Shown here piece after piece: positions 4,159 through 59,576 of a stretch of DNA of 64,000 nt (positions are counted from its first letter, which is position 1; each line of letters starts with the position of its first letter). The DNA is from a candidate division FCPU426 bacterium. Its GTDB lineage: Bacteria > Oederibacteriota > Muellerivitia > Muellerivitales > Muellerivitaceae. The stretch is from positions 22,374-86,373 of the forward strand of contig JASHNQ010000050.1 of the NCBI GenBank assembly GCA_030041545.1, written 5' to 3'. A program made the translations under genes and the position numbers. A model generated the notes under the pieces. The model was not told the DNA's origin and made no database searches. It worked only from the letters and a program-made list of their open reading frames with translations.

Positions 4159-4175
4159 TAATATAATGGTTTCCC

Positions 4176-6650
4176 ATGAACCCGGCTTCCCTGCCCATCG
4201 ACGCCCTCCTTCCCCAAATCCGGGGGGCCTTGGATAAAAACAACGCCGCCGTGGTGGTGGCCGAACCCGGAGCCGGTAAAACCACCCGCGTGCCTCCCGC
4301 CCTTCTTTCCACTGCTTTTGTTGGGGAAAAGGAAATCTGGGTCCTCCAGCCCCGTCGCCTGGCGGCCAAGTTGGCGGCCCTGCGCGTGGCCGGGGAACGG
4401 GGTGAGGAAATCGGCCAGAGGGTGGGCTACCAGTTCCGTTTTGAGAAGGTGGCGGGCCCCCAAACCCGGCTAAAGTTCATGACCGACGGCATGCTGCTGC
4501 CCCTGGCGCGTGAGGACTCCGGGCTTTCCCGCGTGGCTGCGGTGGTCCTGGACGAGTTTCACGAGCGTAGCCTGGAGCTGGACTTTACCCTGGGTTTCCT
4601 CCGCCGCCTCCAACTAGGCCCCCGCCCGGACCTCCGTATCTTGGCGATGAGCGCCACCTTGGACGCCCAGTCCCTCTCCGCCTACCTTTCCAACTGCCCG
4701 GTTTTCGAAAGCCGGGGTCGCGCCTTTCCCGTGGCCGTGGAATACCACCCCTTCCCCCAAGAGTCCGATTTGGCCCTCAAGGTCCGGTCGGCCATCCGCC
4801 GCCTAACAGCCCAAGGCGTGAGGGAAACCACCCTGGTTTTCCTGCCGGGCTTACCCGAGATCCGGCAATGCCAAAGAGCCTTGGAGAAGGAACACGCCGA
4901 AATCCATGCTCTTTATGGCGACCTGCCGGTGTCCGAACAACAGGCCGTACTCAAGCCCACGGCCGGAAACAAGGTCATCCTGAGCACCAACGTGGCCGAA
5001 ACGTCCCTCACCGTGCCCGGCGTCACGGCGGTCGTGGATTCGGGCCTCACCCGCCAAGCCCGCGTTTCCGCCTGGTCGGGCCTCACCCGCCTGGTCACGG
5101 TCCCCGCTAGCCAGGCTTCGGCCGCGCAAAGGACAGGCCGGGCCGGCCGCCTCAAAGAAGGCCTATGTTTCCGGCTTTTTACCCAATTCGACTTCGACCA
5201 CCGGGCCGCCTTTGACCTTCCCGAAATCCTTCGCGCCGACCTGTCGCGAAGCCTCCTGGACCTGATGTCCCTGGGCGTTGAGGACCTGGACGCCTTCCCC
5301 TGGTTTTTGAAACCCTCCCCTTCTTCCCTTCTCTCTTCCTTGGCTTTGCTGGAGGGGCTTGGGGCGGTTTCCGGCGGAAATCTCACGGCCCGGGGACGGG
5401 AAATGGCCGGCTTTCCCGTGGCGCCCCGCCTGGCCAAGTTTCTCCTGGAGGCCAGGACCCTGGGGAAGGGAAATTATCCCGTTGTGGAGAAAGCCTGCCG
5501 TTTGGCGGTCCTGGTCGGCGAGGAACGTTCCGAATCCGAGGACTTGCTGGAAGAACTCGCCAAGTACCGACCGGACGCGGAAGCTAAAAAACTAGTGGAA
5601 AAACTTTGGGATTGGGTGGTTAAGAAATTTCCATCTTCCCCGGCGGGAAAGGGAGAAATCCCTGGCATCCTCGCCAAAGCCCTCCTCTCCGCCTTCCCCG
5701 ACCGGGTGGCCAAGGTGAGGCCCGGCGAATCCACCGGCTCGCGGAACCTGGGAGGCCGCAAAAGGGAACTCCTGCTTTCCGGCGGCGGCTCGGCCGTGGC
5801 TTCCGACAGCCCCCTCACCCGCGCCCACGACTATTTCGTGGTGGTGGAGGCCCGGGAATCGACCCAAGGGCTGAAGGACCGGATGGGTGGGGGAGCCCAA
5901 GCCCAGGTGAAGGCCCGGTCGCTGTGCCCCATTGAAATGGATTGGCTCCTGGACCTTTTCCCGGATCGCCTAGCCGAAGGGGTGACCGTGGAGTGGAACG
6001 AAAAGTCCAAGCGGGTGGAGGGTTTCAAGCGGCTGAAATACGGCGAATTGGTCCTAGATGAAAAACCCCTGTCGCCCAAGGACTTCGGCCCCGAAACGCG
6101 GGATTTGTTGTTCAAGGAAGCCCTGGCGGCCGGCCCTTCGGCCTATTGCGATCCCGAGGAACTCCAGGATTTTTTGAATCGGGTGAAATTCGTGGCCGGG
6201 AGGGTGAAGGAATATCCCGGAATGGTTAAAGCCGAGGTGGAAGAAACCTTTAAGGGGCTCTGTGAAGGTTGCCGGAGTTTCGAGGATTTAAAGGCGGCGG
6301 GACTGGTGGCGGCCCTGCGGTCCCGCCTTTCCCCCAAGGAACAATCGTTGCTGGAAAAACTAGCGCCCGCCCAGGTCGCCCTGCCCTTGGGCCGCCGCAT
6401 GGCGATCCACTACGAAGAGGGGAAACCCCCCTGGGGCCAGGCCCGCATCCAGGATTTTTTCGGTTTAAAACAAGGGCCTTCGGTCGCGGGCGGCGAGGTC
6501 CCGGTCGTGTTGCACCTTCTCTCGCCCGCCCAGCGGCCCGTGCAGGTCACCAGCGACCTAGCGGGTTTTTGGAGGAATCATTATCCCCAAGTCCGAAAGG
6601 AACTCTCGCGGCGGTATCCAAAACACAAATGGCCAGAAAATCCCATGTAA
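4176..6650 (+). CDS. hrpB: ATP-dependent RNA helicase HrpB (DEAH-box)
   Basis: 824 aa; Walker A GAGKTTRVP, DEAH-type LDEFHERS, and an HrpB-type C-terminal domain. Confidence 0.85.
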   Translation: MNPASLPIDALLPQIRGALDKNNAAVVVAEPGAGKTTRVPPALLSTAFVGEKEIWVLQPRRLAAKLAALRVAGERGEEIGQRVGYQFRFEKVAGPQTRLKFMTDGMLLPLAREDSGLSRVAAVVLDEFHERSLELDFTLGFLRRLQLGPRPDLRILAMSATLDAQSLSAYLSNCPVFESRGRAFPVAVEYHPFPQESDLALKVRSAIRRLTAQGVRETTLVFLPGLPEIRQCQRALEKEHAEIHALYGDLPVSEQQAVLKPTAGNKVILSTNVAETSLTVPGVTAVVDSGLTRQARVSAWSGLTRLVTVPASQASAAQRTGRAGRLKEGLCFRLFTQFDFDHRAAFDLPEILRADLSRSLLDLMSLGVEDLDAFPWFLKPSPSSLLSSLALLEGLGAVSGGNLTARGREMAGFPVAPRLAKFLLEARTLGKGNYPVVEKACRLAVLVGEERSESEDLLEELAKYRPDAEAKKLVEKLWDWVVKKFPSSPAGKGEIPGILAKALLSAFPDRVAKVRPGESTGSRNLGGRKRELLLSGGGSAVASDSPLTRAHDYFVVVEARESTQGLKDRMGGGAQAQVKARSLCPIEMDWLLDLFPDRLAEGVTVEWNEKSKRVEGFKRLKYGELVLDEKPLSPKDFGPETRDLLFKEALAAGPSAYCDPEELQDFLNRVKFVAGRVKEYPGMVKAEVEETFKGLCEGCRSFEDLKAAGLVAALRSRLSPKEQSLLEKLAPAQVALPLGRRMAIHYEEGKPPWGQARIQDFFGLKQGPSVAGGEVPVVLHLLSPAQRPVQVTSDLAGFWRNHYPQVRKELSRRYPKHKWPENPM

Positions 6651-12051: not shown

Positions 12052-12834
12052 TTAAAAAAGGTTTTTTTCTATTACAAAATCGGTGGTGGTGCCCGTCTGG
12101 CCGGGCGTCACGCCCAGTCCCACCTCGAAAAGCCAGCCCCCGGTTTTGAAGCCCACCTCGGGCACCAGCACCCATTGGCTGGAAGTCCCTCCGTTGTCCG
12201 GAAGCAGGTTGTCGGTCCAATCCCCCTCCACTTGGATGGCCCAATGGGCGCCCAGGGCGTAACCCAGGGCCGTGAAGGCGAACCAGTTGGCAGTGAAGTT
12301 GTTGTCCAAGGCCCCGTTATAGCCGTAGTTCCCCTGGAGGAAAACCCTTCCCATGCGCACGGCGTCCAGCGCCTGGAAGGTGTAGCTGCTTCCAACGCCG
12401 GGAAACCGGCTGTCGGGAGTCGCCCAATAAAATCCCTGGGCTTCCAGGGAGAAAACGCCGCCCGCGCCGCCGTCCGGATCGTGGAAGCGCCCGAAGACCC
12501 AGCGGGGCCCGCCTCCCAAGGGGCCCAAGGCCGCGGGCCCGTGGCCCAGGGGTTCCTCCAGCAAAAGGTCGGGGAAAGTGATGTCCAGCCCCCAATCCCT
12601 GGCCAGATGGATAAGCCCCTCGCCTTGCAGGTTGGTAAAGGTGCCCGCCGCGTTGCTGTTGTCAATGGAACCGGTCACGTAATAAACGCTGGACACCTCG
12701 GCCTCGTCCAGGTTGATGGCGCGCGTGATGGTGGGAACCTCCTGGGCCTTGGCGGCGCCGGCGAAAAACGCAATGGCCGCGGCCAGCCCGAGGGCCCGGG
12801 AAAAGGAACCAAGCCGGCTAAAAAGGTTTTTCAC
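12052..12834 (-). CDS. hypothetical secreted/outer-membrane protein (C-terminal Phe)
   Basis: Signal peptide; beta-rich composition with aromatic C-terminus ...IEKNLF; GTG start with AAGGAAAGG upstream. Confidence 0.5.
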   Translation of the reverse strand: MKNLFSRLGSFSRALGLAAAIAFFAGAAKAQEVPTITRAINLDEAEVSSVYYVTGSIDNSNAAGTFTNLQGEGLIHLARDWGLDITFPDLLLEEPLGHGPAALGPLGGGPRWVFGRFHDPDGGAGGVFSLEAQGFYWATPDSRFPGVGSSYTFQALDAVRMGRVFLQGNYGYNGALDNNFTANWFAFTALGYALGAHWAIQVEGDWTDNLLPDNGGTSSQWVLVPEVGFKTGGWLFEVGLGVTPGQTGTTTDFVIEKNLF

Positions 12835-13019
12835 GCCTTTCCTTTCTTCGGAAGCGGGAGGGACGGGACCATGATAGGGGCGGGAATCCCAAAAAGGAAG
12901 GGCGAAGGACCGGGGGCAGTGACTCGTTTGAGGCTGTTGAAAAAGTCCCGGGGACAGGGTTCCAGGGACAAAAGGCTACGTCACTATTTTTCCTGGTACG
13001 GCCAGTCGCCAGCCGCCCT

Positions 13020-14678
13020 TCACAACTGCTTCACCGGGTAGCCTTTTTGGGAGAGGAGGGCCGGCAGGCCGTAGGAACCCACCAAGTGGCCGCTTCCCAC
13101 GACGATGAAATAGGTGCCCCGGCTCGCCAATATGCGGTCCATTTGCGGGATCCAGTACTGGTTCCGCTGCACAAGGATTTTTTCCATGATGGCACGGTCG
13201 TCCGGCGCCAGGCCGCTGTACATGAGCGAGGCCATGTCCACCGTGTTGCCTGTCTTCCAATCGGCGAAAATCTCGTCCACGAACCGGACTTGGTTGAGGG
13301 AGGCCGCCGAGGACCCGAAAAGGTAATAAACCTGTTCGGGCTCCGGCAGGCTGTCCAGGACCTGGAAGGGTTCGTACCAGAATTCCATCCCGAAGACAGG
13401 CTTGCCGGCCTTAAGGGCCTTGCGCAGGAAGATCGAATCAATGCCGTTTTGCTTCAGGGGCTTGAGGCCCTCCAGCCTCCCCCGGCGGGCCAGGTAGTCG
13501 TTCACGATGCAAGGTTTCAGGTTTTGGATTTCGGAAACGGGCACCCCTTCCATGGCCGCCGCCTTTTGCACGGCCTGCCACTGGCCCAGGGTCAGGTGGT
13601 TCGGAAGGCTGTCGCCCGGGGGGTAGGAAAAATGGTCCCGGACGTACCGGGGATAGTCCCTTTGCACCTCGGCTTGTTGGGAGAGGTCGTACTCAAACCC
13701 GACGTAATCCGAGGCTTCGAAGGCCCTTTCCACGATCTCGGGCACCTGCAGGGGCGTATGGGGCCGCACATGGATGGCGCCCAATAGGTAGACCGTGGCC
13801 GTGGGGGAGCTCACCTTCCAGAAGAAATGCCGGGCGCCCGGGTTTTCGGAAGAGGCCGGAACCACCTGGGTATCTCCGTTGTCGCCGCCCGGCATGAGGG
13901 CGGCGGCCTGCTGGACCTCGTAATCCGCCAGGGTGAAGGTGGCCTGGAAGAGCTGGCCCGGGCTGCGCTGGTAGAAAGTGAGGGACGCGGGAAGTGGGTA
14001 GCCCTCAACAGGCTGGTATTGGATCACCAGGTCCATCGCCACGGGGATGTTGTCCATGGGCATGCGTATCTGCATTCCGATGTGCTGGGGAAGCGCGCCC
14101 TGGGGGGAAGGCAGGAAGTCCAGCTGCAGTTCCCGGGTTTCCCCCAGGACCTGGATCACCATCTTCTTGCCCAGGGACCTTTCATCGAAATCCATAGTCA
14201 CCGTGGTTTTGGGCGTCTTTTGGACGATGGTGAAGGCCGCGCCCCCGTCCCGCGTGATGCGGTAGGAGAACTTTTTCGACGGCGGGACGAACAAGGGCGA
14301 GGCCACGAAGCCCCCCCAGATTTCCAGGAGGGAATTGGCCATGTTGCTCAAAAGCCGCACCCTCTCGGGCGTGGCCTGGGGATCGCCCCCGTTGGAGGAA
14401 AAGCTCAGGATGGGCATGATCCCCGACCCCACGTAGGAAAAATCGAATTGGGGATGGGTCTCCTGCCAGTCGAAGTCCCGCCAGGCGCCGGCCATGCCCT
14501 TGGGCAGCTGGCCCGAAAGGGCCACCGTGGCCTTGGCCTGGAAGCTTTTGAGGCCTTCTCGGGAGAAGCAGTAATAGTAGCGGTCCAGGCGTTGCAGGTA
14601 GGACGCCATGTCGAAGTCGTCGGCCCAGGCCGGGAGGGCGAAGAGGCAGAGGGTCAAGGAAAGGAAACGGGATTTCAT
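13020..14678 (-). CDS. TraB/GumN family protein with N-terminal domain of unknown function
   Basis: Signal peptide; C-terminal half carries TraB/GumN-like YLLGAIHV...FGSGHLVG motifs. Confidence 0.6.
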   Translation of the reverse strand: MKSRFLSLTLCLFALPAWADDFDMASYLQRLDRYYYCFSREGLKSFQAKATVALSGQLPKGMAGAWRDFDWQETHPQFDFSYVGSGIMPILSFSSNGGDPQATPERVRLLSNMANSLLEIWGGFVASPLFVPPSKKFSYRITRDGGAAFTIVQKTPKTTVTMDFDERSLGKKMVIQVLGETRELQLDFLPSPQGALPQHIGMQIRMPMDNIPVAMDLVIQYQPVEGYPLPASLTFYQRSPGQLFQATFTLADYEVQQAAALMPGGDNGDTQVVPASSENPGARHFFWKVSSPTATVYLLGAIHVRPHTPLQVPEIVERAFEASDYVGFEYDLSQQAEVQRDYPRYVRDHFSYPPGDSLPNHLTLGQWQAVQKAAAMEGVPVSEIQNLKPCIVNDYLARRGRLEGLKPLKQNGIDSIFLRKALKAGKPVFGMEFWYEPFQVLDSLPEPEQVYYLFGSSAASLNQVRFVDEIFADWKTGNTVDMASLMYSGLAPDDRAIMEKILVQRNQYWIPQMDRILASRGTYFIVVGSGHLVGSYGLPALLSQKGYPVKQL

Positions 14679-38867: not shown

Positions 38868-40537
38868 TTGCGTCCTCCTTTCGCGGGAGAAACCCTTTTT
38901 CTTTTTTTGTTTTTCCCAAGCTTTGGCTTTCTTAGTGCCTTGGTGCCTTGGTGGTTGGAGGTTATCTTTTCCGCCTGTCCCACCGCCATCAACACCGCTC
39001 GGGCCTTATTGCAGGATTCCATATACTCGGCTTCCGGAACCGAGTCCGCTACCAGACCGGCCCCGGCCTGAACGTAGGCTATTTGCGTTGTTACCGAACC
39101 CGTCTTACGGGTTCGCCCCGAGCGAGCGGAGCGAGTCGAATGGGCCTTTTTGAGGACTACGGAGCGGATGGTGATGGCCGAGTCCATGTTTCCGTCGAAC
39201 CCGAAAGCCACTACCGCCCCACCGTAAATCCCCCGGCGGGAGGGCTCCAGTTCCTCGATGATCTCCATGGCGCGGATCTTAGGCGCCCCCGAAAGGGTGC
39301 CCGCTGGGAAGCAGGATTGGAACGCGTCATAGGCGGTTTTGTTTTTTTGCAGCCGCCCCGCCACGTCGGAGACGATGTGCATGACGTGGGAATAACGCTC
39401 GACGCGCTTGAAATGCCCCACCTTGACCGTGCCGAAATCGCAGACTCGTCCCAGGTCGTTGCGGGCCAGGTCCACCAGCATCACGTGTTCGGCCAGTTCC
39501 TTCTCGTCGGCTAGGAGGTTTTCCTCCAGTTGTTTATCTTCCTCCGGTGTCTTTCCCCGGGGCCTGCTCCCGGCGATAGGCCGGGTCTCCACCACGCCGT
39601 TCTGCACCTTGATCATCATCTCGGGCGAGGAGCCCACCAATTCCAAACCTCCCATCCTCAGGATGAACATGTAGGGGGATGGATTCAATCTCCTTAAAAC
39701 CCGGTAAATGGAAACCGCATCGGCTGAAACATCCCTTTCGAATCGCTGGGAGCCCACCACCTGGATGATGTCCCCCGCCTTGATGTATTCCTTGGATATA
39801 TCCACCATTCGCATGAAATTCTCGGGAGTCATGTTGGAGGAGAACCCAAAAAGGTCGTTAGGGCCCATCTTGACCGCGGAAGTCACGGGGATTTCCCTCA
39901 CTCCTTTTAATGGTTTTTCCATTTTTTGGGCCAAGGCGGCCAATCGCCGTATGGCGCCCAGGTAAGCCTTGAGCCGGTTGGTCCCAGGGCCGACTTCCAC
40001 ATTGACCACCAAGCGGAGCGTCCTTTTCAGGTGGTCGAAGAGGGCCAGTTGGTCGGTCACCATCAGGTAAAGGTCCGGGAGGTCCAGGATATCTGGTTTT
40101 TGGGACGGAAGTTTCTCGAAATACCGGACGGCGTCATAGCCGACGAAACCGACCAGCCCTCCCAGGAACCCTTGTGTCCCCGCCAGGGGGGCTTGCCGGA
40201 TGCCCGAGACCTCTTTTTGAATGACTTGCAACGGGTTGGCCGCCTTCTGGGACAACTTTTTCTTGCCCCGGCGGTGGGTAAGCATGCCGTTCTTGGCCTC
40301 ATAGACCGCGGTGGGCTCGAACCCCACAATGGAGAACCGGGCGACCTGCTCGTTCTTTTCCACGCTTTCCAGCAGGAACCCGTTCTCGCCTTGAGCCAGT
40401 TTCAAATAGACCGAAAGCGGGGTTTCCAAATCCGATTGGAAAACCATGGACACCGGAACGCGATTGTAAGATTCGGCGAGTTGGACGAAAGAATCGATGG
40501 AAGAAGGAACAATGTTTGAGGAAATTGCGGTTTTCAT
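38864..40537 (-). CDS. trpE: anthranilate synthase component I with unusual Lys-rich C-terminal extension
   Basis: Chorismate-binding domain conserved to ...[12 protein letters not shown]; an extra ~40 aa basic tail (..[22 protein letters not shown]) is encoded by palindrome-element-like DNA. Confidence 0.8.
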
Positions 40538-40651
40538 GGAAGAAACCCCCTTGGTTTGAAATTTAAATCGAGACGGCGGCGGCTATCCTGGGCTCTCAGG
40601 CGAGCCAAGAGAAGCGACGCCAATGACTTAAATTCGCAACCAAAGCAGGTT

Positions 40652-41038
40652 TCATTTGTGGCCGTAAACCTTTTCGGGATCAAACACCTGGACCCCCACT
40701 TCCTTCCAGTTGTCCCCCGACAATTCATTGAAGAAACAGGAGCGCTTGCCCGTGTGGCAGGCGGCTTCCCCGACTTGCTCTATTTTTACCAGAATCACGT
40801 CCTTATCGCAATCGGTATAAAGGGCCTTGAGCTTCTGGACATTCCCCGATTCCTCGCCCTTTTTCCACAGCTTTTTGCGGCTGCGGCTCCAATAGGTCAC
40901 GTTGCCGGTCTTAAGGGTATGCTCGAGGGCCTCTCGGTTGGCGAAGGCGAACATCAGGATCTCGCCGGTCTTCGCGTCCTGCGCGATGACGGGGATCAAA
41001 CCGTCTTCTTGGAATTTCAAGGTGTCAATCCAGCCCAT
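40652..41038 (-). CDS. hisI: phosphoribosyl-AMP cyclohydrolase
   Basis: LIPVIAQD...YWSRSR..LW.KGE.SGN..CD.D..L..V.Q.G.ACHTG..SCF. Confidence 0.85.
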   Translation of the reverse strand: MGWIDTLKFQEDGLIPVIAQDAKTGEILMFAFANREALEHTLKTGNVTYWSRSRKKLWKKGEESGNVQKLKALYTDCDKDVILVKIEQVGEAACHTGKRSCFFNELSGDNWKEVGVQVFDPEKVYGHK

Positions 41039-41217
41039 GAGTTTCCTCCAAAAATTAAATCGCTGTCATTGCGACCTGGCTTCGCTAAAGCTACGCCAGG
41101 CGGGGGAATAAGGATGACGACTTGTCCCCATAGCTCGAAGAGCGAAGGGGGAAGCAACCCCAGTTAAAGTTAGGGAGAGGCGATATTACCCGAAGGTAGG
41201 ATGGGATGCAAATTGAT

Positions 41218-41772
41218 TCAATGGCGGCTTCGGGGATCGCTTTCCAAAATGGCGTAAAGATAAGAATCCCGCCATGCGCCTTTTTGAAAAACATTTTTAC
41301 GAAGCAGCCCTTCCCTTTTCATGCCAGCTTTTTCCAGGACACGGGCCGAGGCCCTGTTCCGGGTGTCGCAGGTGGCCCAAATGCGATGCAGCTTGAGTTT
41401 GGAAAAGCCAAAATGAATCAAGGCCATGGCCGCTTCGGTGGCGTAGCCGTATCCCCAATAGCGCCGGTTGAGAACGTAACCCAAGCCGGCATCCATTTGC
41501 GTCGAGTTGAGGCAGTTAAGTCTGCACGCGCCAATAATCCGGTTTTCCCCCTTTAAAAAAATCGCTGTTGGAAAATCCTTCCTGGTTTTCGGCCGATGGG
41601 TCGCCAATACCTTTTTGGCGTAGGCCTTGGTCTGGGACACTGTATTGGGGCCAAAGGGAACGTAACGAACAACTTCCGGGTCGGAAGCATATTCGTGCAT
41701 AAACTTCCATTCCCCCGGGGCAAAATCCCTGAGGATCAACCGTTTCGTTTCAATCCATGTTGTTTTTTTCAT
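41218..41772 (-). CDS. GNAT family N-acetyltransferase (RimJ/RimL-like)
   Basis: GNAT core motifs (...IGACRL...GYGYATEA...). Confidence 0.75.
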   Translation of the reverse strand: MKKTTWIETKRLILRDFAPGEWKFMHEYASDPEVVRYVPFGPNTVSQTKAYAKKVLATHRPKTRKDFPTAIFLKGENRIIGACRLNCLNSTQMDAGLGYVLNRRYWGYGYATEAAMALIHFGFSKLKLHRIWATCDTRNRASARVLEKAGMKREGLLRKNVFQKGAWRDSYLYAILESDPRSRH

Positions 41773-41797
41773 ATGAGTCGCAGGACTTAAAAACCTG

Positions 41798-42376
41798 TTA
41801 TTTATTCGCTCGAGGCCAAACTCCCAATTCAGGCCAAGGATCGTTACAAAGTCGTTCCACCAGTTTCTTAGGTTCCGCCTCCAAAACTAGGGCCTCCACC
41901 AGTCCTGGTTTTACGAAACCTTCCTCTTCTGTGGTGGCAAGAAAATGAAAAAGACGGTCGTAAAAGCCTTCCACGTTGAGGAACCCGATGGGCTTGGCCT
42001 GGAAACCCAGTTGGTTCCAGGTGACCATTTCCATGGTCTCATCCAAGGTGCCGAACCCGCCCGGCAAGGCAATGAAGGCGTCGGCCAGATCCGCCATTTT
42101 GGCTTTTCGCGCGTGCATACCCTTGACGATATGCAGTTCACTCAACCCGGGATGGGCCACTTCATTGGTTTTTAAGGCCTCAGGCAGGACGCCGATCACC
42201 CGCCCGCCCCTGGCCAAAACCGCGTCCGCCACTTGTCCCATGAGGCCGATCCGGGAGCCGCCATACACCAAGGACAGCCCTTGTTCCACCAAGGCTTCCC
42301 CCAATTGCTTCGCCTTTTCAGCGTAGCAGGGCTTCATTCCCGGACTGGAGCCGCAATAAACGCATATCGCTTTCAT
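41798..42376 (-). CDS. LOG family protein (TIGR00730; cytokinin riboside 5'-monophosphate phosphoribohydrolase-like)
   Basis: KAICVYCGSSPG...GGFGTLDE motifs; ATG overlaps the upstream gene stop (ATGA). Confidence 0.8.
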   Translation of the reverse strand: MKAICVYCGSSPGMKPCYAEKAKQLGEALVEQGLSLVYGGSRIGLMGQVADAVLARGGRVIGVLPEALKTNEVAHPGLSELHIVKGMHARKAKMADLADAFIALPGGFGTLDETMEMVTWNQLGFQAKPIGFLNVEGFYDRLFHFLATTEEEGFVKPGLVEALVLEAEPKKLVERLCNDPWPELGVWPRANK

Positions 42377-49606: not shown

Positions 49607-50863
49607 GTTTATCCTTTGAATATCCGCGCCCAAAACCAAAAGCTTCTGTTCGATTTTCTCATATCCCCGGTCCAAGTGGTAAATGCGCTGCACCAGGGTT
49701 TCCCCTTCCGCCACCAGTCCCGCCAGGATCAGGGCCGCGCTGGCCCGAAGGTCCGAGGCCATGACCGGCGCGCCGGTCAATTGTTTCACGCCTTTCACCA
49801 CCGCGTGGCTGCGGTCGATATTGATGTCCGCGCCCATGCGGTTCAGTTCGAAGACATGCATGAAGCGGTTCTCCCAGATGGTTTCGGTGATGACGCTGAT
49901 ACCCGGCACCACGGCCAAAAGCGCCATGATCTGGGCCTGCATGTCCGTGGGGAAACCGGGATAAGGAAGGATCCAGACATCCGCCGGTTTGTAGTCTCCC
50001 CCGCCCTTTACCCTTAGGCCCTCGGCGGTCCCTTCGACCGTTACTCCGATCTGCTTCAACTTGTCGGTAACCGCCGTTAAGTGGGTTGAATCGGCTTTCT
50101 TGAGCAGGACGTCGCCCCGGGTGATGGCGGCGGCCGCCATGAAGGTTCCCGCTTCCACCCGGTCGGGGATCATCGAATAATCGGTGCCCTTCAGGGTCTT
50201 TTTTCCGTCGATGACCAGGCGGGAGGTTCCCCCGCCCTCGATATGGGCTCCCATGGCCTTAAGGAAATTGACCAAATCCCCCACTTCGGGTTCGGTGGCG
50301 GCGGATTCGATGACCGTGGTTCCCTCGGCGGCCGTGGCGGCCATAAGCACGTTCACCGTAGCGCCCACGCTGGGGCCGTGCGGGCCGGCCAGGTAAATGG
50401 TGGTCCCCTTGAGTTTGGAAGCCTTGGCGTGGATGTAGCCGTGCTCGATGGTCACCTTGGCGCCCAACTGCTCCACGCCCTTCAGGTGAAGGTCAATGGG
50501 CCTTGCGCCGATGGCACAGCCCCCGGGCAGGGAAACCTTCGCTTCCCCCAGGCGGGCCAGGCAGGCGCCCAATGAGTAAATGGAGGCCCGCATGGTCTTG
50601 ACCAGCTCGTAAGGCGCCTCGAACTTATTGAACCCTTTGGGGTCGATATGCAGCCGGTGGTCTTCCAGGACGGCGGAAGCGCCCAGCTTGCGCAGCACCT
50701 CACCCATGGTCTTGATGTCGTTCAAGTAGGGCACGTTATGGATGACCGAGGGAGACTCGCCCAAAAGGGCGGCGGTCATGACGGGCAGGGTGGCGTTCTT
50801 GGAGCCGCTGATCTCAACCGTGCCCCGGAGGGTCTTACCGCCCTTGACGGAAATCTTTTGCAT
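49604..50863 (-). CDS. murA: UDP-N-acetylglucosamine 1-carboxyvinyltransferase
   Basis: Canonical MurA from MQKISVKGGKTLRGTVEISGSKNATLP onward. Confidence 0.9.
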   Translation of the reverse strand: MQKISVKGGKTLRGTVEISGSKNATLPVMTAALLGESPSVIHNVPYLNDIKTMGEVLRKLGASAVLEDHRLHIDPKGFNKFEAPYELVKTMRASIYSLGACLARLGEAKVSLPGGCAIGARPIDLHLKGVEQLGAKVTIEHGYIHAKASKLKGTTIYLAGPHGPSVGATVNVLMAATAAEGTTVIESAATEPEVGDLVNFLKAMGAHIEGGGTSRLVIDGKKTLKGTDYSMIPDRVEAGTFMAAAAITRGDVLLKKADSTHLTAVTDKLKQIGVTVEGTAEGLRVKGGGDYKPADVWILPYPGFPTDMQAQIMALLAVVPGISVITETIWENRFMHVFELNRMGADINIDRSHAVVKGVKQLTGAPVMASDLRASAALILAGLVAEGETLVQRIYHLDRGYEKIEQKLLVLGADIQRIN

Positions 50864-50885
50864 GAAAACCCCCAAAATCAAATGG

Positions 50886-51010
50886 AACCACAAAGGCACT
50901 AAGGGCACAAAGTAAATCCAAAACGATTTTGAGTTAAAACTAAAAAAGCCGTCCTAAGACGGCCTTTCAATGTTTAGAAAATTTTCGACTTTCTTGGTGC
51001 CCTTGGTGCC
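50886..51010. repeat. compound palindromic element P6 with perfect inner hairpin
   Basis: ggaaccacaaaggcactaagggcacaaagt ... gccgtcctaagacggc ... cttggtgcccttggtgcctttgtggttc, between the rnpB 3' end and the murA start. Confidence 0.65.
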
Positions 51011-51040
51011 TTTGTGGTTCAATGCCTTTGAAAATAAAAA

Positions 51041-51507
51041 AAGAAGCAGGTCATAAGCCGAATTCTGTTAAGTGTGATCATTTCTCTCGCGGGGTCCGTT
51101 GCCGGCCCCGTCGATGCGATCTTACCCGAAGGCCTCCCCTTCCCGTGAAGGAAAGGGATGGGACGGACCGCCCCAAAGCCTCCCTATTTGATCTTGCTCC
51201 GGATGGGGTTTGCCATGCCGCCCCACTTGCGTGGGGGCGCGGTGGGCTCTTACCCCACCTTTTCACCCTTACCCTTCGACTCGGCCTTACGGCCTCGCTC
51301 AGGGCGGGCCCCTTTAGGGAACCTGCTCTGGTCTCGCCAACGGGCGGTTTGTTTTCTGTGGCACTTTCCTTCAACCCAGTCCTCATCACCAAAGGTTAGA
51401 GGAAGGCTGGGCCGACCGGGCGTTACCCGGCATCCTGTCCTGCGGAGTTCGGACTTTCCTCACCCCCGGGCCCAAAAGGCCGGGAGCGCGATCACGGACC
51501 TGCTTCC
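51041..51507 (-). ncRNA. rnpB: RNase P RNA (bacterial type A)
   Basis: Minus-strand transcript: P1 GGAAGCAGGUCC pairs with GGACCUGCUUC; P4 5' strand GAGGAAAGUCCGAACUCC; GGGUAACGCC; P4 3' strand ACAGAAUUCGGCUUAUGACC; U-tract after the 3' end. Only spurious ORFs overlap. Confidence 0.85.
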
Positions 51508-56499: not shown

Positions 56500-56511
56500 T
56501 AAATGAAGTCT

Positions 56512-57501
56512 TTATTCAGTCGCTTTTAGGATATTTTTAGCTAATTTCTTAAAATCTTCGTAACAATCTTTAACAGCACTAACATGAGCACCTATTGCAC
56601 CATCAGCAGGTTTTAAAAAAAACATCGGCTTACGAGCTTCCATTGCCATTGGCATCAAGCTTCGATAATGTTTAATAGTAGAAAAACGATACGGATCATT
56701 GTCGGTGGCGGGGGCAGAATTTTCGCTTTGTTCCAAAATATAACTTCGATAGTACATTGGAACTTTTTTTATCCATCTGTCATAAGCTTTAACTGGACGA
56801 TCCTGACGAATCGCATGTTGCATTACAACATAACCAATAGGCTTCATCGTACCTTTCGGTATTAATAAGTCTTTTGATATTTTCTTTTGATTTTTTACTT
56901 TTTGACGGCTTGCCCATTCTTCACGCCAATTGACTAGTGTAGGGCCCAAATTTCTCAACCCTTGAAGCGAAAACAAATCGGGAGCCAATGGGATAACAAC
57001 AAATTCTGCAGAAATAAGAGCCGATCTGTTTATAGCACCAAGATTTGGCCCAACATCAACCAATACTAAATCCGCTTTATTTTCATTCGATGCTTTTAAC
57101 AAAATTCTATAAAAAGCGGAAACTGCTCTAAAGGATGCTTCGTCTCCATCCATACAACGCGGCCAAGCATCTGACAATTTCGCTTCAAAATTCGACAATT
57201 CTAGGTCACCAGGTATGATCCCTAAATGTTTATTGATTCTCTCAACGTTGGGATCACCTATATCACCCGTCCCCTTTTGAATCGGATTTACCGCACCTTG
57301 AATGCTCAAATAGTGAGGGCCATCTGGCCACAATTCTTCCAACCGATTTTCTGCCAAAAACATGGATGTCAAATTTGCTTGGGGATCCAAATCTGCCGCT
57401 ATCACATTCAAACCCAATTCGGTGTACATCCAAGCCAAGTGATATACCAAAGAAGTTTTTCCGACACCTCCCTTGTTGTTAAAGAATGCAATGGTTTTCA
57501 T
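56512..57501 (-). CDS. ParA/MinD-family ATPase with ~100-aa C-terminal extension (low-GC island)
   Basis: MKTIAFFNNKGGVGKTSLVYHLA deviant Walker A; AT-rich codon usage unlike the rest of the window. Confidence 0.75.
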   Translation of the reverse strand: MKTIAFFNNKGGVGKTSLVYHLAWMYTELGLNVIAADLDPQANLTSMFLAENRLEELWPDGPHYLSIQGAVNPIQKGTGDIGDPNVERINKHLGIIPGDLELSNFEAKLSDAWPRCMDGDEASFRAVSAFYRILLKASNENKADLVLVDVGPNLGAINRSALISAEFVVIPLAPDLFSLQGLRNLGPTLVNWREEWASRQKVKNQKKISKDLLIPKGTMKPIGYVVMQHAIRQDRPVKAYDRWIKKVPMYYRSYILEQSENSAPATDNDPYRFSTIKHYRSLMPMAMEARKPMFFLKPADGAIGAHVSAVKDCYEDFKKLAKNILKATE

Positions 57502-58688
57502 TTTTTCCCTCTCAAGATTGCTAGAACATAAGTATCTTCAAAAGAAAAATCAGCTACTGGATTTCCGTTCTTTATCAATGACTCTTGTGCTCTCTCAACC
57601 CCACGGCCAAACTTGTTAACATAACCCAGATTATTCATGGCTTCCGCAATTATCGGATTCCTGTAGGCGGTTTGTTTCGGAAAATTTTTGGGAGTGGCTT
57701 CCCCGTACAAGCCACCTGGACTTTGAATTTCTATTCTATCTTCGAACCAATAAAATCGAACAGGGGCGGTAGCCTCATAATCTCTGTGCATCATCCCGTT
57801 CATAAGTATTTCTCGTATCGCTATTTCGGGATAATCTTTTATATCTTTATCTCGTAGAGCATCTTCCCTAACAACAGACTTAGTAATTTGAATTGAAACA
57901 AAAGAATTTAAATCTTTTAGAACCGTCAACAAATCCCCAGAAAATCTTTTGTTATCCAATACGTCATCAGAAAGTTTTTTCCCATTAAAACGGACAAACT
58001 CAACATAGGCGCCAGGAAACCAGTTTAGTGGGTTTTTACCAAATAGAAGCATTCCAGCATTTGTGGGGCAAGATTTTGAGAGGTTAAAAAAACGCAAAGA
58101 AGCCAACTGTAAATCTACGGAACGATGATTTTCAGCGAGCACATCAGAAGCAACCGCAGTTTCTCGATATCCAACCACAAACAGCTCTTGAGATAAATCA
58201 GTGATTGATGAGCCAACACATGGACGAGCATCAAGTGTTTTTGCAGAATCGGTATTTTTCTCAGTTAATCTTCGCTCTTCTTGTAAGGTTGCAAAACCTC
58301 TCCTTGGACCAACGCGAATACACGTCCTGCCTTTGTACCGAACCGGAGTTAATTCCGATGGAAGCACCTCAACAATTGCAATTTCTCCAGTTCTCATTGG
58401 ATGTTCAAGTTTATATACACTCATGATTGGAAATGGTTGGATATTTGCATCGGATCTTAAACTTCCAAGTTGTTCCAATAATAGTTCAGTAACTTTTAAT
58501 CCAGATGCGGTTCCATCTGGATTCACACCAATAAGCAAATATCCGGGTAATCCGTGGTTCGGCAAGTCATTTGAAAATGAACATATAGCTTCACAAAATT
58601 TATCTATATCCTCAGTTGAAATGGTTTTTTCAACTCGATCTTGTTCATCGCTCTTAAGAAGTTTTTTCAATTCTTTGGGAGTTAGCAA
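57498..58688 (-). CDS. Schlafen-like AlbA_2 domain + HATPase_c_4 domain protein (annotated elsewhere as ATP-binding protein / putative regulator)
   Basis: N-terminal ...GYLLIGVNPDGTASGLKV (AlbA_2-like); C-terminal IREILMNGMMHRDYEATAPVRFYWFEDRIEIQSPGGL (HATPase_c_4-like); overlaps the ParA-like gene by 4 nt; low GC. Confidence 0.7.
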   Translation of the reverse strand: MLTPKELKKLLKSDEQDRVEKTISTEDIDKFCEAICSFSNDLPNHGLPGYLLIGVNPDGTASGLKVTELLLEQLGSLRSDANIQPFPIMSVYKLEHPMRTGEIAIVEVLPSELTPVRYKGRTCIRVGPRRGFATLQEERRLTEKNTDSAKTLDARPCVGSSITDLSQELFVVGYRETAVASDVLAENHRSVDLQLASLRFFNLSKSCPTNAGMLLFGKNPLNWFPGAYVEFVRFNGKKLSDDVLDNKRFSGDLLTVLKDLNSFVSIQITKSVVREDALRDKDIKDYPEIAIREILMNGMMHRDYEATAPVRFYWFEDRIEIQSPGGLYGEATPKNFPKQTAYRNPIIAEAMNNLGYVNKFGRGVERAQESLIKNGNPVADFSFEDTYVLAILRGKK

Positions 58689-58763
58689 TTGGACTCCAGT
58701 GAATCAATAAAATGTTAAACATTCATTATCAAATTGTAGTAATCCGATTACAAATTATTAAGG

Positions 58764-59576
58764 TTATCTATTTTTTAAAAGAATTTTTTGGATAGCAAGA
58801 CTATCCCTGAGGACCTGACGGAAGGTCTCGAAGGTGATTTGGGTGGCGGCGTCGGACTTGGCTTTGGGCGGGTCCGGGTGCACCTCCATGAAAAGGCCGT
58901 CCACTCCCACGGCCACCGCCGCCCGCATGAGGTCCGGCGCGTGCTCGCGGGTTCCGCCGCTGGAAGTCCCCTTGGCCGCGGGCTGCTGCACGCTGTGGGT
59001 GCCGTCGAATATAACCGGGCAGCCGGTCTTTTTCATTTCCGGGATGCCCCGGAAATCCACCACCAGGTTGTTGTAGCCGAAGGAAGTTCCCCGTTCGGTA
59101 AGCCAGATGTTCTTCTGGCCCACTTCCATCATCTTGCCGATCACATGGATCATTTCCAAGGGAGCCATGAATTGCGCCTTTTTCACGTTGACCACTTCCC
59201 CATGCCGGGCCGCCTCCCTTAAAAGGCTGGTTTGGCGGGAAAGAAAAGCGGGGATTTGGAGTACGTCAGCCACCTTGGCGGCCGCCTTCACCTCGCCGAT
59301 CTCGTGGATATCCGTTAAAACGGGGATGTTGAATTTCTTTTTCACTAAAGCCAGGTCGGCCAGGCCCTTCTTGAGTCCGGGCCCCCGGAAACCCTTCATC
59401 GAAGTGCGGTTGGCCTTGTCGTAGGAGGATTTGAAGACCAGGGGCACGCCGAACTCGTCCGCGATACCCTTGATGGTCCTGGCGGTCTTTAAAAGAAAAT
59501 CCGTGCCCTCGATCACGCAGGGCCCCGCGATCACGAAGAACTTGCCGTTTTTGCCTAACTGTTTTACGTCGATCAT
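58764..59576 (-). CDS. kdsA: 3-deoxy-8-phosphooctulonate synthase
   Basis: Canonical KdsA; ATG (MIDVKQ) preceded by AAGGGG. Confidence 0.9.
   Translation of the reverse strand: MIDVKQLGKNGKFFVIAGPCVIEGTDFLLKTARTIKGIADEFGVPLVFKSSYDKANRTSMKGFRGPGLKKGLADLALVKKKFNIPVLTDIHEIGEVKAAAKVADVLQIPAFLSRQTSLLREAARHGEVVNVKKAQFMAPLEMIHVIGKMMEVGQKNIWLTERGTSFGYNNLVVDFRGIPEMKKTGCPVIFDGTHSVQQPAAKGTSSGGTREHAPDLMRAAVAVGVDGLFMEVHPDPPKAKSDAATQITFETFRQVLRDSLAIQKILLKNR

Follow-up and report, generated by a model that had tools for sequence, protein, structure and literature searches.

Why should a small island of foreign base composition, set between core genes of a bacterial chromosome, consist of a Schlafen-like protein and a ParA-like ATPase and nothing else? 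The question is raised by positions 56,500 to 58,763 of a 64,000-nucleotide stretch of contig JASHNQ010000050.1 (hereafter the window) from a candidate division FCPU426 bacterium. Two minus-strand open reading frames (ORFs), overlapping by 4 nucleotides just as an original prediction made from this DNA had described, make up the island:

57498..58688, minus strand: Schlatpase gene, 396 amino acids, with a Schlafen/AlbA_2 nuclease domain, a middle domain and a C-terminal GHKL ATP-binding domain; TTG start codon
56512..57501, minus strand: ParA-ext gene, 329 amino acids, a deviant-Walker-A ParA/MinD (SIMIBI-class) ATPase
57498..57501, minus strand: ATGA overlap of Schlatpase stop and ParA-ext start, seen in the sequence, with a GAGGG ribosome-binding site ahead of it

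Proteins of the upstream kind, which join a Schlafen domain to a GHKL domain, have been named Schlatpase in one study (bioRxiv 10.64898/2026.05.29.728809) and pSlfn-HisKinase in another (PMC13056530), and we use ParA-ext for the family of ATPases that share the C-terminal region of the downstream product (3PG5/DIP2308-like). We report that the two genes are almost invariably found together, and propose that the island is probably a self-contained two-gene conflict module, of the abortive-infection or toxin-antitoxin type, with an ATP-dependent Schlafen RNase under the gating control of the ParA-like protein. The original prediction had put the locus forward as a candidate novel defense or addiction module; our results support that reading, with a function that we infer, while the word novel needs qualifying, because both the Schlafen-GHKL class and dyads of ParA-like ATPases with HEPN proteins had already been described.

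Strict pairing of Schlatpase and ParA-ext

A metagenome scan with only the C-terminal half of ParA-ext as the query returned 600 candidate stretches. Relatedness was confirmed for 586 of them, and the 80 best loci were retained. A Schlatpase gene lies directly upstream on the same strand in 72 of the 73 of these loci that could be assessed, typically 0-30 nucleotides away. Seven of the remaining eight are cut by a contig end, and one (L059) has room upstream and no Schlatpase. The 4-nucleotide overlap, or a gap of at most 30 nucleotides, is found in most of the 72 paired loci and also in L109, L111 and L167-L169. When loci were instead chosen through Schlatpases of about 394 amino acids, ParA-ext followed downstream in six of six (L001, Acidobacteriia L002, Bdellovibrionales L006, Bryobacteraceae L167, L168 and Omnitrophota L169), the annotated ones overlapping by 4 nucleotides. 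The pair is present in Verrucomicrobiota and Undibacterium genomes as well, and has no conserved third gene, the commonest neighbor occurring in 7 of 84 loci.

The partners also share a history. Pairwise distances among Schlatpases correlate with those among the corresponding ParA-ext proteins (Mantel r = 0.56, with none of 2000 permutations as high), and the two families co-diversify. In one organism they have become a single protein, P0399, in which a 731-amino-acid ORF joins Schlatpase to ParA-ext in frame through a short linker; this natural fusion lies between proS and a yhdP-like gene (L170 6001-8196, also L171-L173), and the identical ORF recurs on at least 15 contigs from several samples. 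Given the counts in both directions, the co-diversification and the fusion, the pairing is not a product of chance, and the co-occurrence search envisaged with the original prediction has found the genes together across many phyla. Judging from the ATGA overlap, the two genes in the window are predicted to be translationally coupled.

Three further sequences touch on the pairing. P0376 and P0412 resemble internal-deletion chimeras of both genes; they are possibly pseudogenes or assembly artifacts. In a metagenome-assembled genome from Firmicutes (L110 4850-6153), ParA-ext is preceded, with a 4-nucleotide overlap and in a region rich in MNT/HepT genes, by a 104-amino-acid ORF with no Pfam match, which could be what is left of a Schlatpase, or else a small partner of another kind.

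The Schlatpase

The upstream protein carries three features of interest:

58305..58643, minus strand: Schlafen/AlbA_2 nuclease domain, residues 16-128 (Pfam PF04326 and PDB 2KYY matches)
58623-58646, minus strand: putative active-site motif E15-x4-E20-K21-T22 (alignment of paired homologues)
57516..57833, minus strand: GHKL (Bergerat-fold) ATP-binding domain, residues ~286-391 (Pfam PF13749, invariant residues and structural matches)

An AlbA_2/Schlafen N-terminus and an HATPase_c_4 C-terminus had been recognized from the letters alone, and both exceed their Pfam cut-offs: SLFN_AlbA_2 (PF04326) matches residues 16-128 with E 5e-10 (40.3 bits, cut-off 25.3), and HATPase_c_4 (PF13749) matches residues 309-391 with E 4e-16 (59.3 bits, cut-off 26). 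A profile search additionally matched PDB 2KYY, an AlbA_2 domain (E 3e-5). We found no winged helix-turn-helix (HTH) or sensor domain in the window protein.

The catalytic motif of prokaryotic Schlafens is Ex4(E/D)xK (PMC13056530). Both acidic residues, E15 and E20, are invariant across 53 paired Schlatpase homologues. The canonical lysine position is Thr22 in the window (58623-58625), with Lys21 adjacent to it, and the subclade to which the window protein belongs has Lys or Arg one position earlier. Position 22 is Lys in 30 of the 53 homologues, 27 of them with the full E-x4-E-R-K, and Thr in 22.

The GHKL motifs comprise E293-x3-N297 and D317...G325-G326...G329, the glycine-rich loop included; the peptide quoted in the original prediction (IREILMNG...SPGGL) corresponds to residues 291-327. 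N297, H301, R302, Y304, D317, E320, G325 and G329 are invariant in the alignment, and the domain matches histidine-kinase CA and PDK domains structurally. The spacing of E293 and N297 equals that of the catalytic E314 and N318 of the SLFN-pAgo protein RzAgo, an equivalence drawn from motif spacing and not from direct alignment. We also observed a near-strict covariation between the two ends of the protein among the 53 homologues, with Lys22 accompanied by Gln at the position of the GHKL catalytic Glu in 29 sequences and Thr22 by an intact Glu293 (57810-57812 in the window) in 21, the window included; Thr22 and Gln293 coincide in only one.

The nearest relative found without a ParA partner is an Alistipes protein (46% identity) that has a C-terminal Fic-like_C winged-helix domain and is encoded on an integrative or mobilizable element. 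Database records often call Schlatpases 'transcriptional regulator' or 'RecG-like helicase'; we set the RecG label aside, as the protein has no helicase domain and the name is inherited from the title of a Pfam family.

ParA-ext

The 329-amino-acid product is a deviant-Walker-A ATPase of the ParA/MinD kind with a C-terminal extension, in agreement with the original prediction. Pfam assigns it to AAA_31 (E 4e-27) and CbiA (E 5e-13), and it has the marks of the SIMIBI class: a KGGxxK[ST] Walker A with the signature lysine (KGGVGKT, K10-T16, at 57454-57474), the DxDPQxN switch (D37-x-D39-P-Q-x-N43), the Walker B aspartate (D149) and a ParA fold. The extension defines the family:

56515..56919, minus strand: family-specific C-terminal region, residues 195-329, with the motif (H)YRSLMPxAQExxKPxFxLxxxDGxxGAH in alignments

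Within this region S281, P292, D300 and G304 are invariant or almost so. Homology to the orphan crystal structure PDB 3PG5 runs the full length of the protein, the C-terminal motif region included, and the region as sole query retrieves 872 clusters at 50% identity, 494 of them at E<=1e-10.

The fold invites the question of whether the island is the remnant of a partition system from a plasmid or an integrated element, with a ParA and an adaptor or centromere-binding protein. The closest structural relatives of ParA-ext are DNA-binding ParA proteins, which bind DNA non-specifically, PHROGs labels it 'ParA-like partition protein', and RepA and ParA partition models match weakly. These NCBIfam matches are far under their cut-offs (ParA_partition 57 bits against 180, RepA 66.6 against 348), and PADLOC, NCBIfam and PHROGs together give only generic or sub-threshold matches for the two island proteins. 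We found no ParB-like gene beside the pair in the window flanks or in more than 80 loci, and neither an integrase nor a rep gene at these places. Gene order and a nuclease-ATPase partner are unlike parAB, a fused single protein exists, and a Vibrio ponticus plasmid that carries a ParA-ext gene beside a SIR2 gene has a separate, canonical ParA-ParB pair. On the sub-cut-off models, the lack of ParB and the plasmid with its own ParA-ParB, we reject the partition reading, which is close to refuted; the original prediction had likewise not regarded this as an obvious plasmid partition locus, and no integrase, ParB or replication gene turned up here or at the syntenic locus L001.

The labels of two orphan structures suggested a further lead. 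PDB 3PG5 is DIP2308 (ParA-ext) and 3LMM is DIP2311 (Schlatpase-HTH), from one genome with locus tags three apart. We did not use this Corynebacterium diphtheriae neighborhood as evidence: in another strain (L025) the ParA-ext gene and a Schlatpase-like gene, which differs from the 3LMM protein, are separated by 7 kb and seven unrelated genes (4170-5279 and 12329-13279). Many Corynebacterium species keep ParA-ext.

Borders and composition of the island

The sharp fall in GC content on which the original prediction had remarked is borne out by calculation. Both island genes have a GC content of 0.39 and a third-codon-position GC (GC3) of 0.28-0.32, and the neighboring DUF1501, DUF1800, kdsA, pyrG and kdsB genes have 0.57-0.63 and 0.73-0.82, respectively; the identities of these flanking genes are backed by the syntenic relative L001, where Pfam gives DAHP_synth_1, CTP synthase, DUF1501 and DUF1800. 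The drop from about 0.60 to 0.39 coincides exactly with the stop codons of DUF1501 (56499), 12 nucleotides from the convergent ParA-ext stop, and kdsA (58764). Across the 64 kb the island is the 2.2-kb segment of lowest GC, at 0.386 against a mean of 0.580 and standard deviation of 0.041 (about 4.7 standard deviations below), and it is unique in the window in this respect. Mild dips to 0.49-0.52 at 50600-51200 and 40500-42000 are much weaker.

58689..58763, minus strand: AT-rich spacer of 75 nucleotides, from kdsA stop to Schlatpase start; GC 0.32 in 58400-58799

This spacer is likely to be the cassette's own promoter region. Two sigma-70-like hexamer pairs occur in it (minus strand, 58761-58733 and 58753-58725), but such matches are no more frequent here than in shuffled sequence, and the promoter is therefore one that we infer. 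A terminator scan of the island region gave nothing above chance. No convincing direct or inverted repeats were found flanking the island, no integrase, transposase, ParB or rep gene was found adjoining it, and the 64-kb window has no tRNA genes.

Genomic context, spread and selection

The insertion site of the cassette differs in every lineage examined. Housekeeping genes flank it at kdsA/DUF1501 in the window and elsewhere at glnS, glnE/glnA and proS/yhdP, and its other neighbors are toxin-antitoxin or MNT/HepT genes, an integrase with AAA_21/RloB, and, at L010, the genes of a predicted viral contig. In about 7 of 84 loci it is associated with Hma, a restriction-like system, the pair being nested between HmaA (SNF2 helicase/NOV_C) and HmaB (DUF1156 methylase):

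Hma-associated loci: L054 (44-11860), L046, L033, L087, L064, L080 and L059

L059 has an HmaA-like gene followed by ParA-ext, with Schlatpase undetected, and no Hma genes are present in the window flanks. The nesting matches a report of Schlafen-histidine-kinase proteins embedded in BREX-related loci as 'backup suicidal effectors' (PMC12839542). A separate observation concerns Undibacterium danionis (L109 13351-14575), where the pair is followed downstream by an Unstab_antitox gene and, beyond it at about 2.5 kb from the pair, by a gene of the Thg1/Thg1C family, which repairs tRNA 5' ends, and a kinase-like AAA_33 gene; a link of this neighborhood to tRNA damage or repair would be speculative.

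The island is horizontally acquired. The cassette is patchily distributed over many phyla at about 57-65% identity, and its GC content tracks that of the host (r = 0.79) at a mean of 5 points under the flanks (45 loci), a pattern consistent with repeated rounds of transfer and later amelioration. In the window lineage the insertion is older than the split from L001, because the island is syntenic with that locus and its Schlatpase has a synonymous divergence (dS) of 0.79, similar to kdsA and pyrG. Schlatpase is clearly under purifying selection (ratio of nonsynonymous to synonymous divergence, dN/dS, 0.07); the estimate is for this gene only, since the synonymous sites of ParA-ext are too diverged. 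The ParA-ext genes of the window and L001 (6894-7889) share 78% amino acid and 72% nucleotide identity with saturated synonymous sites, compared with 91% amino acid identity for Schlatpase, which is the opposite of the family-wide trend, where ParA-ext is the more conserved partner. The DUF1501 gene adjoining ParA-ext is likewise highly diverged between window and L001. Local recombination, or faster evolution at that end of the island, could account for the divergence of ParA-ext.

A rival reading takes the two genes for a housekeeping or regulatory pair, engaged for example in processing RNA or in regulation associated with DNA, with the ParA-like ATPase placing or regulating a protein that binds RNA or DNA. 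The strong purifying selection and the vertical descent seen on comparison of the window with L001 favor it, as do the frequent position of the cassette beside core genes such as kdsA, glnS, proS and glnA and the source annotations as a regulator or helicase. Against this stand the patchy distribution across phyla, the host-foreign composition, the variable insertion site, the lack of a helicase domain and the sister clades with SIR2 and HEPN toxins on prophages and plasmids that are described below. We regard a housekeeping role as very unlikely.

Related operons with SIR2 and HEPN partners

Viral contigs and annotated plasmids supplied more distant ParA-ext genes, with 24-43% identity in the C-terminal half. 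In about twenty cases the next gene is an ORF of 280-300 amino acids, mostly with a 4-nucleotide overlap, and 21 of the 23 ORFs scanned are SIR2_2 proteins:

L140, L141, L143, L144, L147-L161, L163 and L166 (viral contigs): ParA-ext with an overlapping SIR2_2 gene of about 290 amino acids
L008 5001-6919 (Salmonella), L028 8001-9892, L175 4001-5889 and L176 4001-5856: ParA-ext and SIR2_2 operon

The operon is found in the Salmonella record, Paeniglutamicibacter, Spirosoma and Vibrio ponticus. Its SIR2 partners resemble the ThsA/Dsr defense sirtuins (PADLOC), and a DNA methylase or prophage integrase often lies upstream. The combination is not in PADLOC v2 and looks like a candidate defense system in its own right.

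A third partner appears on plasmids of Burkholderia glumae, where ParA-ext is followed by an overlapping HEPN_RiboL-PSP gene (L174 3995-5634, with more than 10 similar plasmid records); the ATPase of this dyad is homologous to the window ParA-ext across the extension (29% identity over 319 amino acids, E 2e-33). The ParA-ext phylogeny splits cleanly by partner type, and its neighbor-joining tree comprises a Schlatpase clade, a SIR2 clade and a third group that is mostly from prophage contigs and mostly without either partner. With its Schlatpase, SIR2 and HEPN partnerships, one ATPase family is thus coupled to three kinds of toxic effector known from anti-phage systems.

Schlatpase-like genes may have another ATPase partner. 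On plasmids of Klebsiella, E. coli, Yersinia and Pseudomonas, genes with 27-28% identity to Schlatpase ('RNA-binding domain-containing protein'; e.g., NZ_CP091149.1 43570-44643) adjoin a 'TrlF family AAA-like ATPase', which one record calls 'histidinol-phosphatase', and these neighbors may be another pairing of Schlatpase with an ATPase.

The range of partners bears on whether the island has an immune role at all or is purely a toxin-antitoxin or addiction module, in which Schlatpase would be the RNase toxin and the ParA-like protein its antitoxin, and the cassette would persist since its loss is harmful. Schlafen, HEPN and SIR2 partners are all toxin-like, the two genes are coupled in translation, the cassette stands by itself as an islet of two genes among housekeeping genes without mobility genes, and toxin-antitoxin genes adjoin several loci; an explicit prediction of this kind has also been made earlier for ParA/Soj-HEPN dyads (PMC3710099). 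Both proteins, however, are large ATP-dependent machines, unlike typical small antitoxins, and some pairs sit inside Hma operons, with sister operons carried as prophage cargo beside integrases and methylases. We consider an exclusively addictive function unlikely, and more a sub-case of our proposal than a true rival to it, because toxin-antitoxin and abortive-infection roles are not mutually exclusive.

A proposed model of a gated Schlafen nuclease

The SIR2 and HEPN sister clades, the occurrence on prophages and plasmids, the Hma nesting and the published anti-phage activity of other Schlafen architectures all strengthen the reading of the island as a defense or addiction module, and enable us to propose a model for its action. 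In this model, Schlatpase would be the effector, a Schlafen-family RNase acting most likely on tRNA, in which binding of ATP to the GHKL domain would lead to oligomerization and an active nuclease, by analogy with RzAgo. ParA-ext would be a partner dedicated to it, with translational coupling fixing the ratio of the two, and may act as an ATP-dependent dimerizing switch that provides the sensing or gating that a stand-alone Schlatpase lacks. It is plausible either that ParA-ext keeps the nuclease inactive until an invader-linked cue arrives, as an antitoxin or guard, or that it licenses nuclease assembly. In both cases the predicted outcome would be translation arrest and growth arrest of the infected cell.

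Several observations weigh against this proposal. In the window and several other genomes the cassette stands alone among housekeeping genes, outside recognizable defense islands, and vertical inheritance with purifying selection since the split from L001 (dS ~0.8) is compatible with any useful function. The window subclade has Thr in place of the canonical Ex4ExK Lys, so that its members are not certain to be competent nucleases. No protection was given by two Enterobacterales Slfn-HisKinase fusions that were tested as single genes (PMC13056530), and PADLOC v2 has no ParA-ext model, its only matches to the protein being at the level of the Walker A motif (PDC-M28B).

A broader reading can be put forward tentatively, although we would lean against it: ParA-ext may represent a previously unrecognized class of immune regulator that, through an ATP-dependent dimer cycle and possibly DNA binding, senses an invader-linked state and licenses interchangeable effectors (a Schlafen-GHKL tRNase, a HEPN RNase or a SIR2 NADase), making the window cassette one member of a widespread, modular defense family. 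If true, this would unify the three operon types, provide a function for the orphan structures 3PG5 and 3LMM, and add to the evolutionary account in which human Schlafens are connected with tRNA-targeting immunity in bacteria. This is a large family found in many phyla, and experiments are practical because its hosts include cultured ones, among them Undibacterium, Burkholderia glumae, Vibrio ponticus and Salmonella.

Comparison with known systems

Schlafen with GHKL is the commonest prokaryotic Schlafen architecture, accounting for 34% of the 5,930 proteins of one survey and for 58.6% of the 103,533 of another (bioRxiv 10.64898/2026.05.29.728809; PMC13056530). Prokaryotic Schlafens defend against phage through tRNA cleavage (PMC13056530), and anti-phage activity has been published for other Schlafen architectures (PMC13056530; bioRxiv 10.64898/2026.05.29.728809). 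The window protein is like the stand-alone Schlatpases of these papers in its SLFN_AlbA_2 and PF13749 supradomain, at both the Pfam and the fold level. The papers treat them as single genes, with or without a C-terminal HTH, whereas the window clade has no HTH and is almost always followed by ParA-ext. Neither paper mentions a ParA partner or any other conserved partner, and ParA is likewise unmentioned in the BREX survey (PMC12839542). Full-text literature searches, whose incomplete coverage makes a prior mention possible, found no description of Schlatpase paired with ParA-ext; it is this pairing that appears new, stand-alone Schlatpases and ParA-HEPN dyads being already known. As the stand-alone type lacks a sensor domain, the near-obligatory ParA-like partner suggests, in a form open to testing, how control over one large clade may be exercised.

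The closest precedent for the operon is the prediction that ParA/Soj-like ATPases and HEPN proteins form toxin-antitoxin dyads, the ATPase serving as nucleotide-dependent antitoxin, with a HEPN family that is sometimes fused to Schlafen (PMC3710099, Anantharaman et al. 2013); the searchable literature holds no experimental test of this proposal. In the window, as in those dyads, an RNase-domain gene and the gene of a SIMIBI/ParA-type ATPase together make up a two-gene operon (as in the 72 of 73 loci and the fusion). It differs in that its effector is a Schlatpase instead of a HEPN protein and is encoded upstream of the ATPase, not downstream. The HEPN protein of the B. glumae dyad belongs to the RiboL-PSP family, and the 2013 dyads include the MAE_18760 HEPN dyads.

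For the anti-phage protein RzAgo it has been shown experimentally that binding of ATP to the GHKL domain tetramerizes the protein and builds an active tRNA-cleaving site. RzAgo and the window protein share the Schlatpase module, and PADLOC pAgo models match window residues 10-337. The sensor or restraint of RzAgo is a fused Argonaute core with guide RNA, whereas the window has no Argonaute and its candidate regulator is a separate ParA-like ATPase. A check against PADLOC-DB v2, as suggested at the outset, found no complete system (pAgo/SPARSA, Thoeris, Hma or others) for the island, which has pAgo-associated matches at the domain level and no Argonaute gene.

ParABS and positioning ATPases such as Soj, McdA, pSM19035 delta and MinD differ from the island, which has no ParB, adaptor or centromere; the partners of ParA-ext are nucleases or NADases, and its insertions and C-terminal motif are common only to 3PG5-like proteins.

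The regulatory logic that we propose has closer parallels among defense systems, and our finding extends their themes and does not overturn them. In PARIS, the P-loop ATPase partner AriA controls the tRNA-targeting nuclease AriB encoded next door, and in Sir2-HerA a P-loop ATPase partner similarly controls an adjacent toxic effector, an NADase. The class of ATPase differs in each case, AriA being ABC-type, HerA RecA-like and the window protein SIMIBI/ParA, with partners that have no sequence or fold relationship. To our knowledge, no ATPase of the SIMIBI class has been demonstrated to act in phage defense and, if our proposal is true, SIMIBI/ParA proteins would be a new ATPase class among the regulators of abortive-infection effectors.

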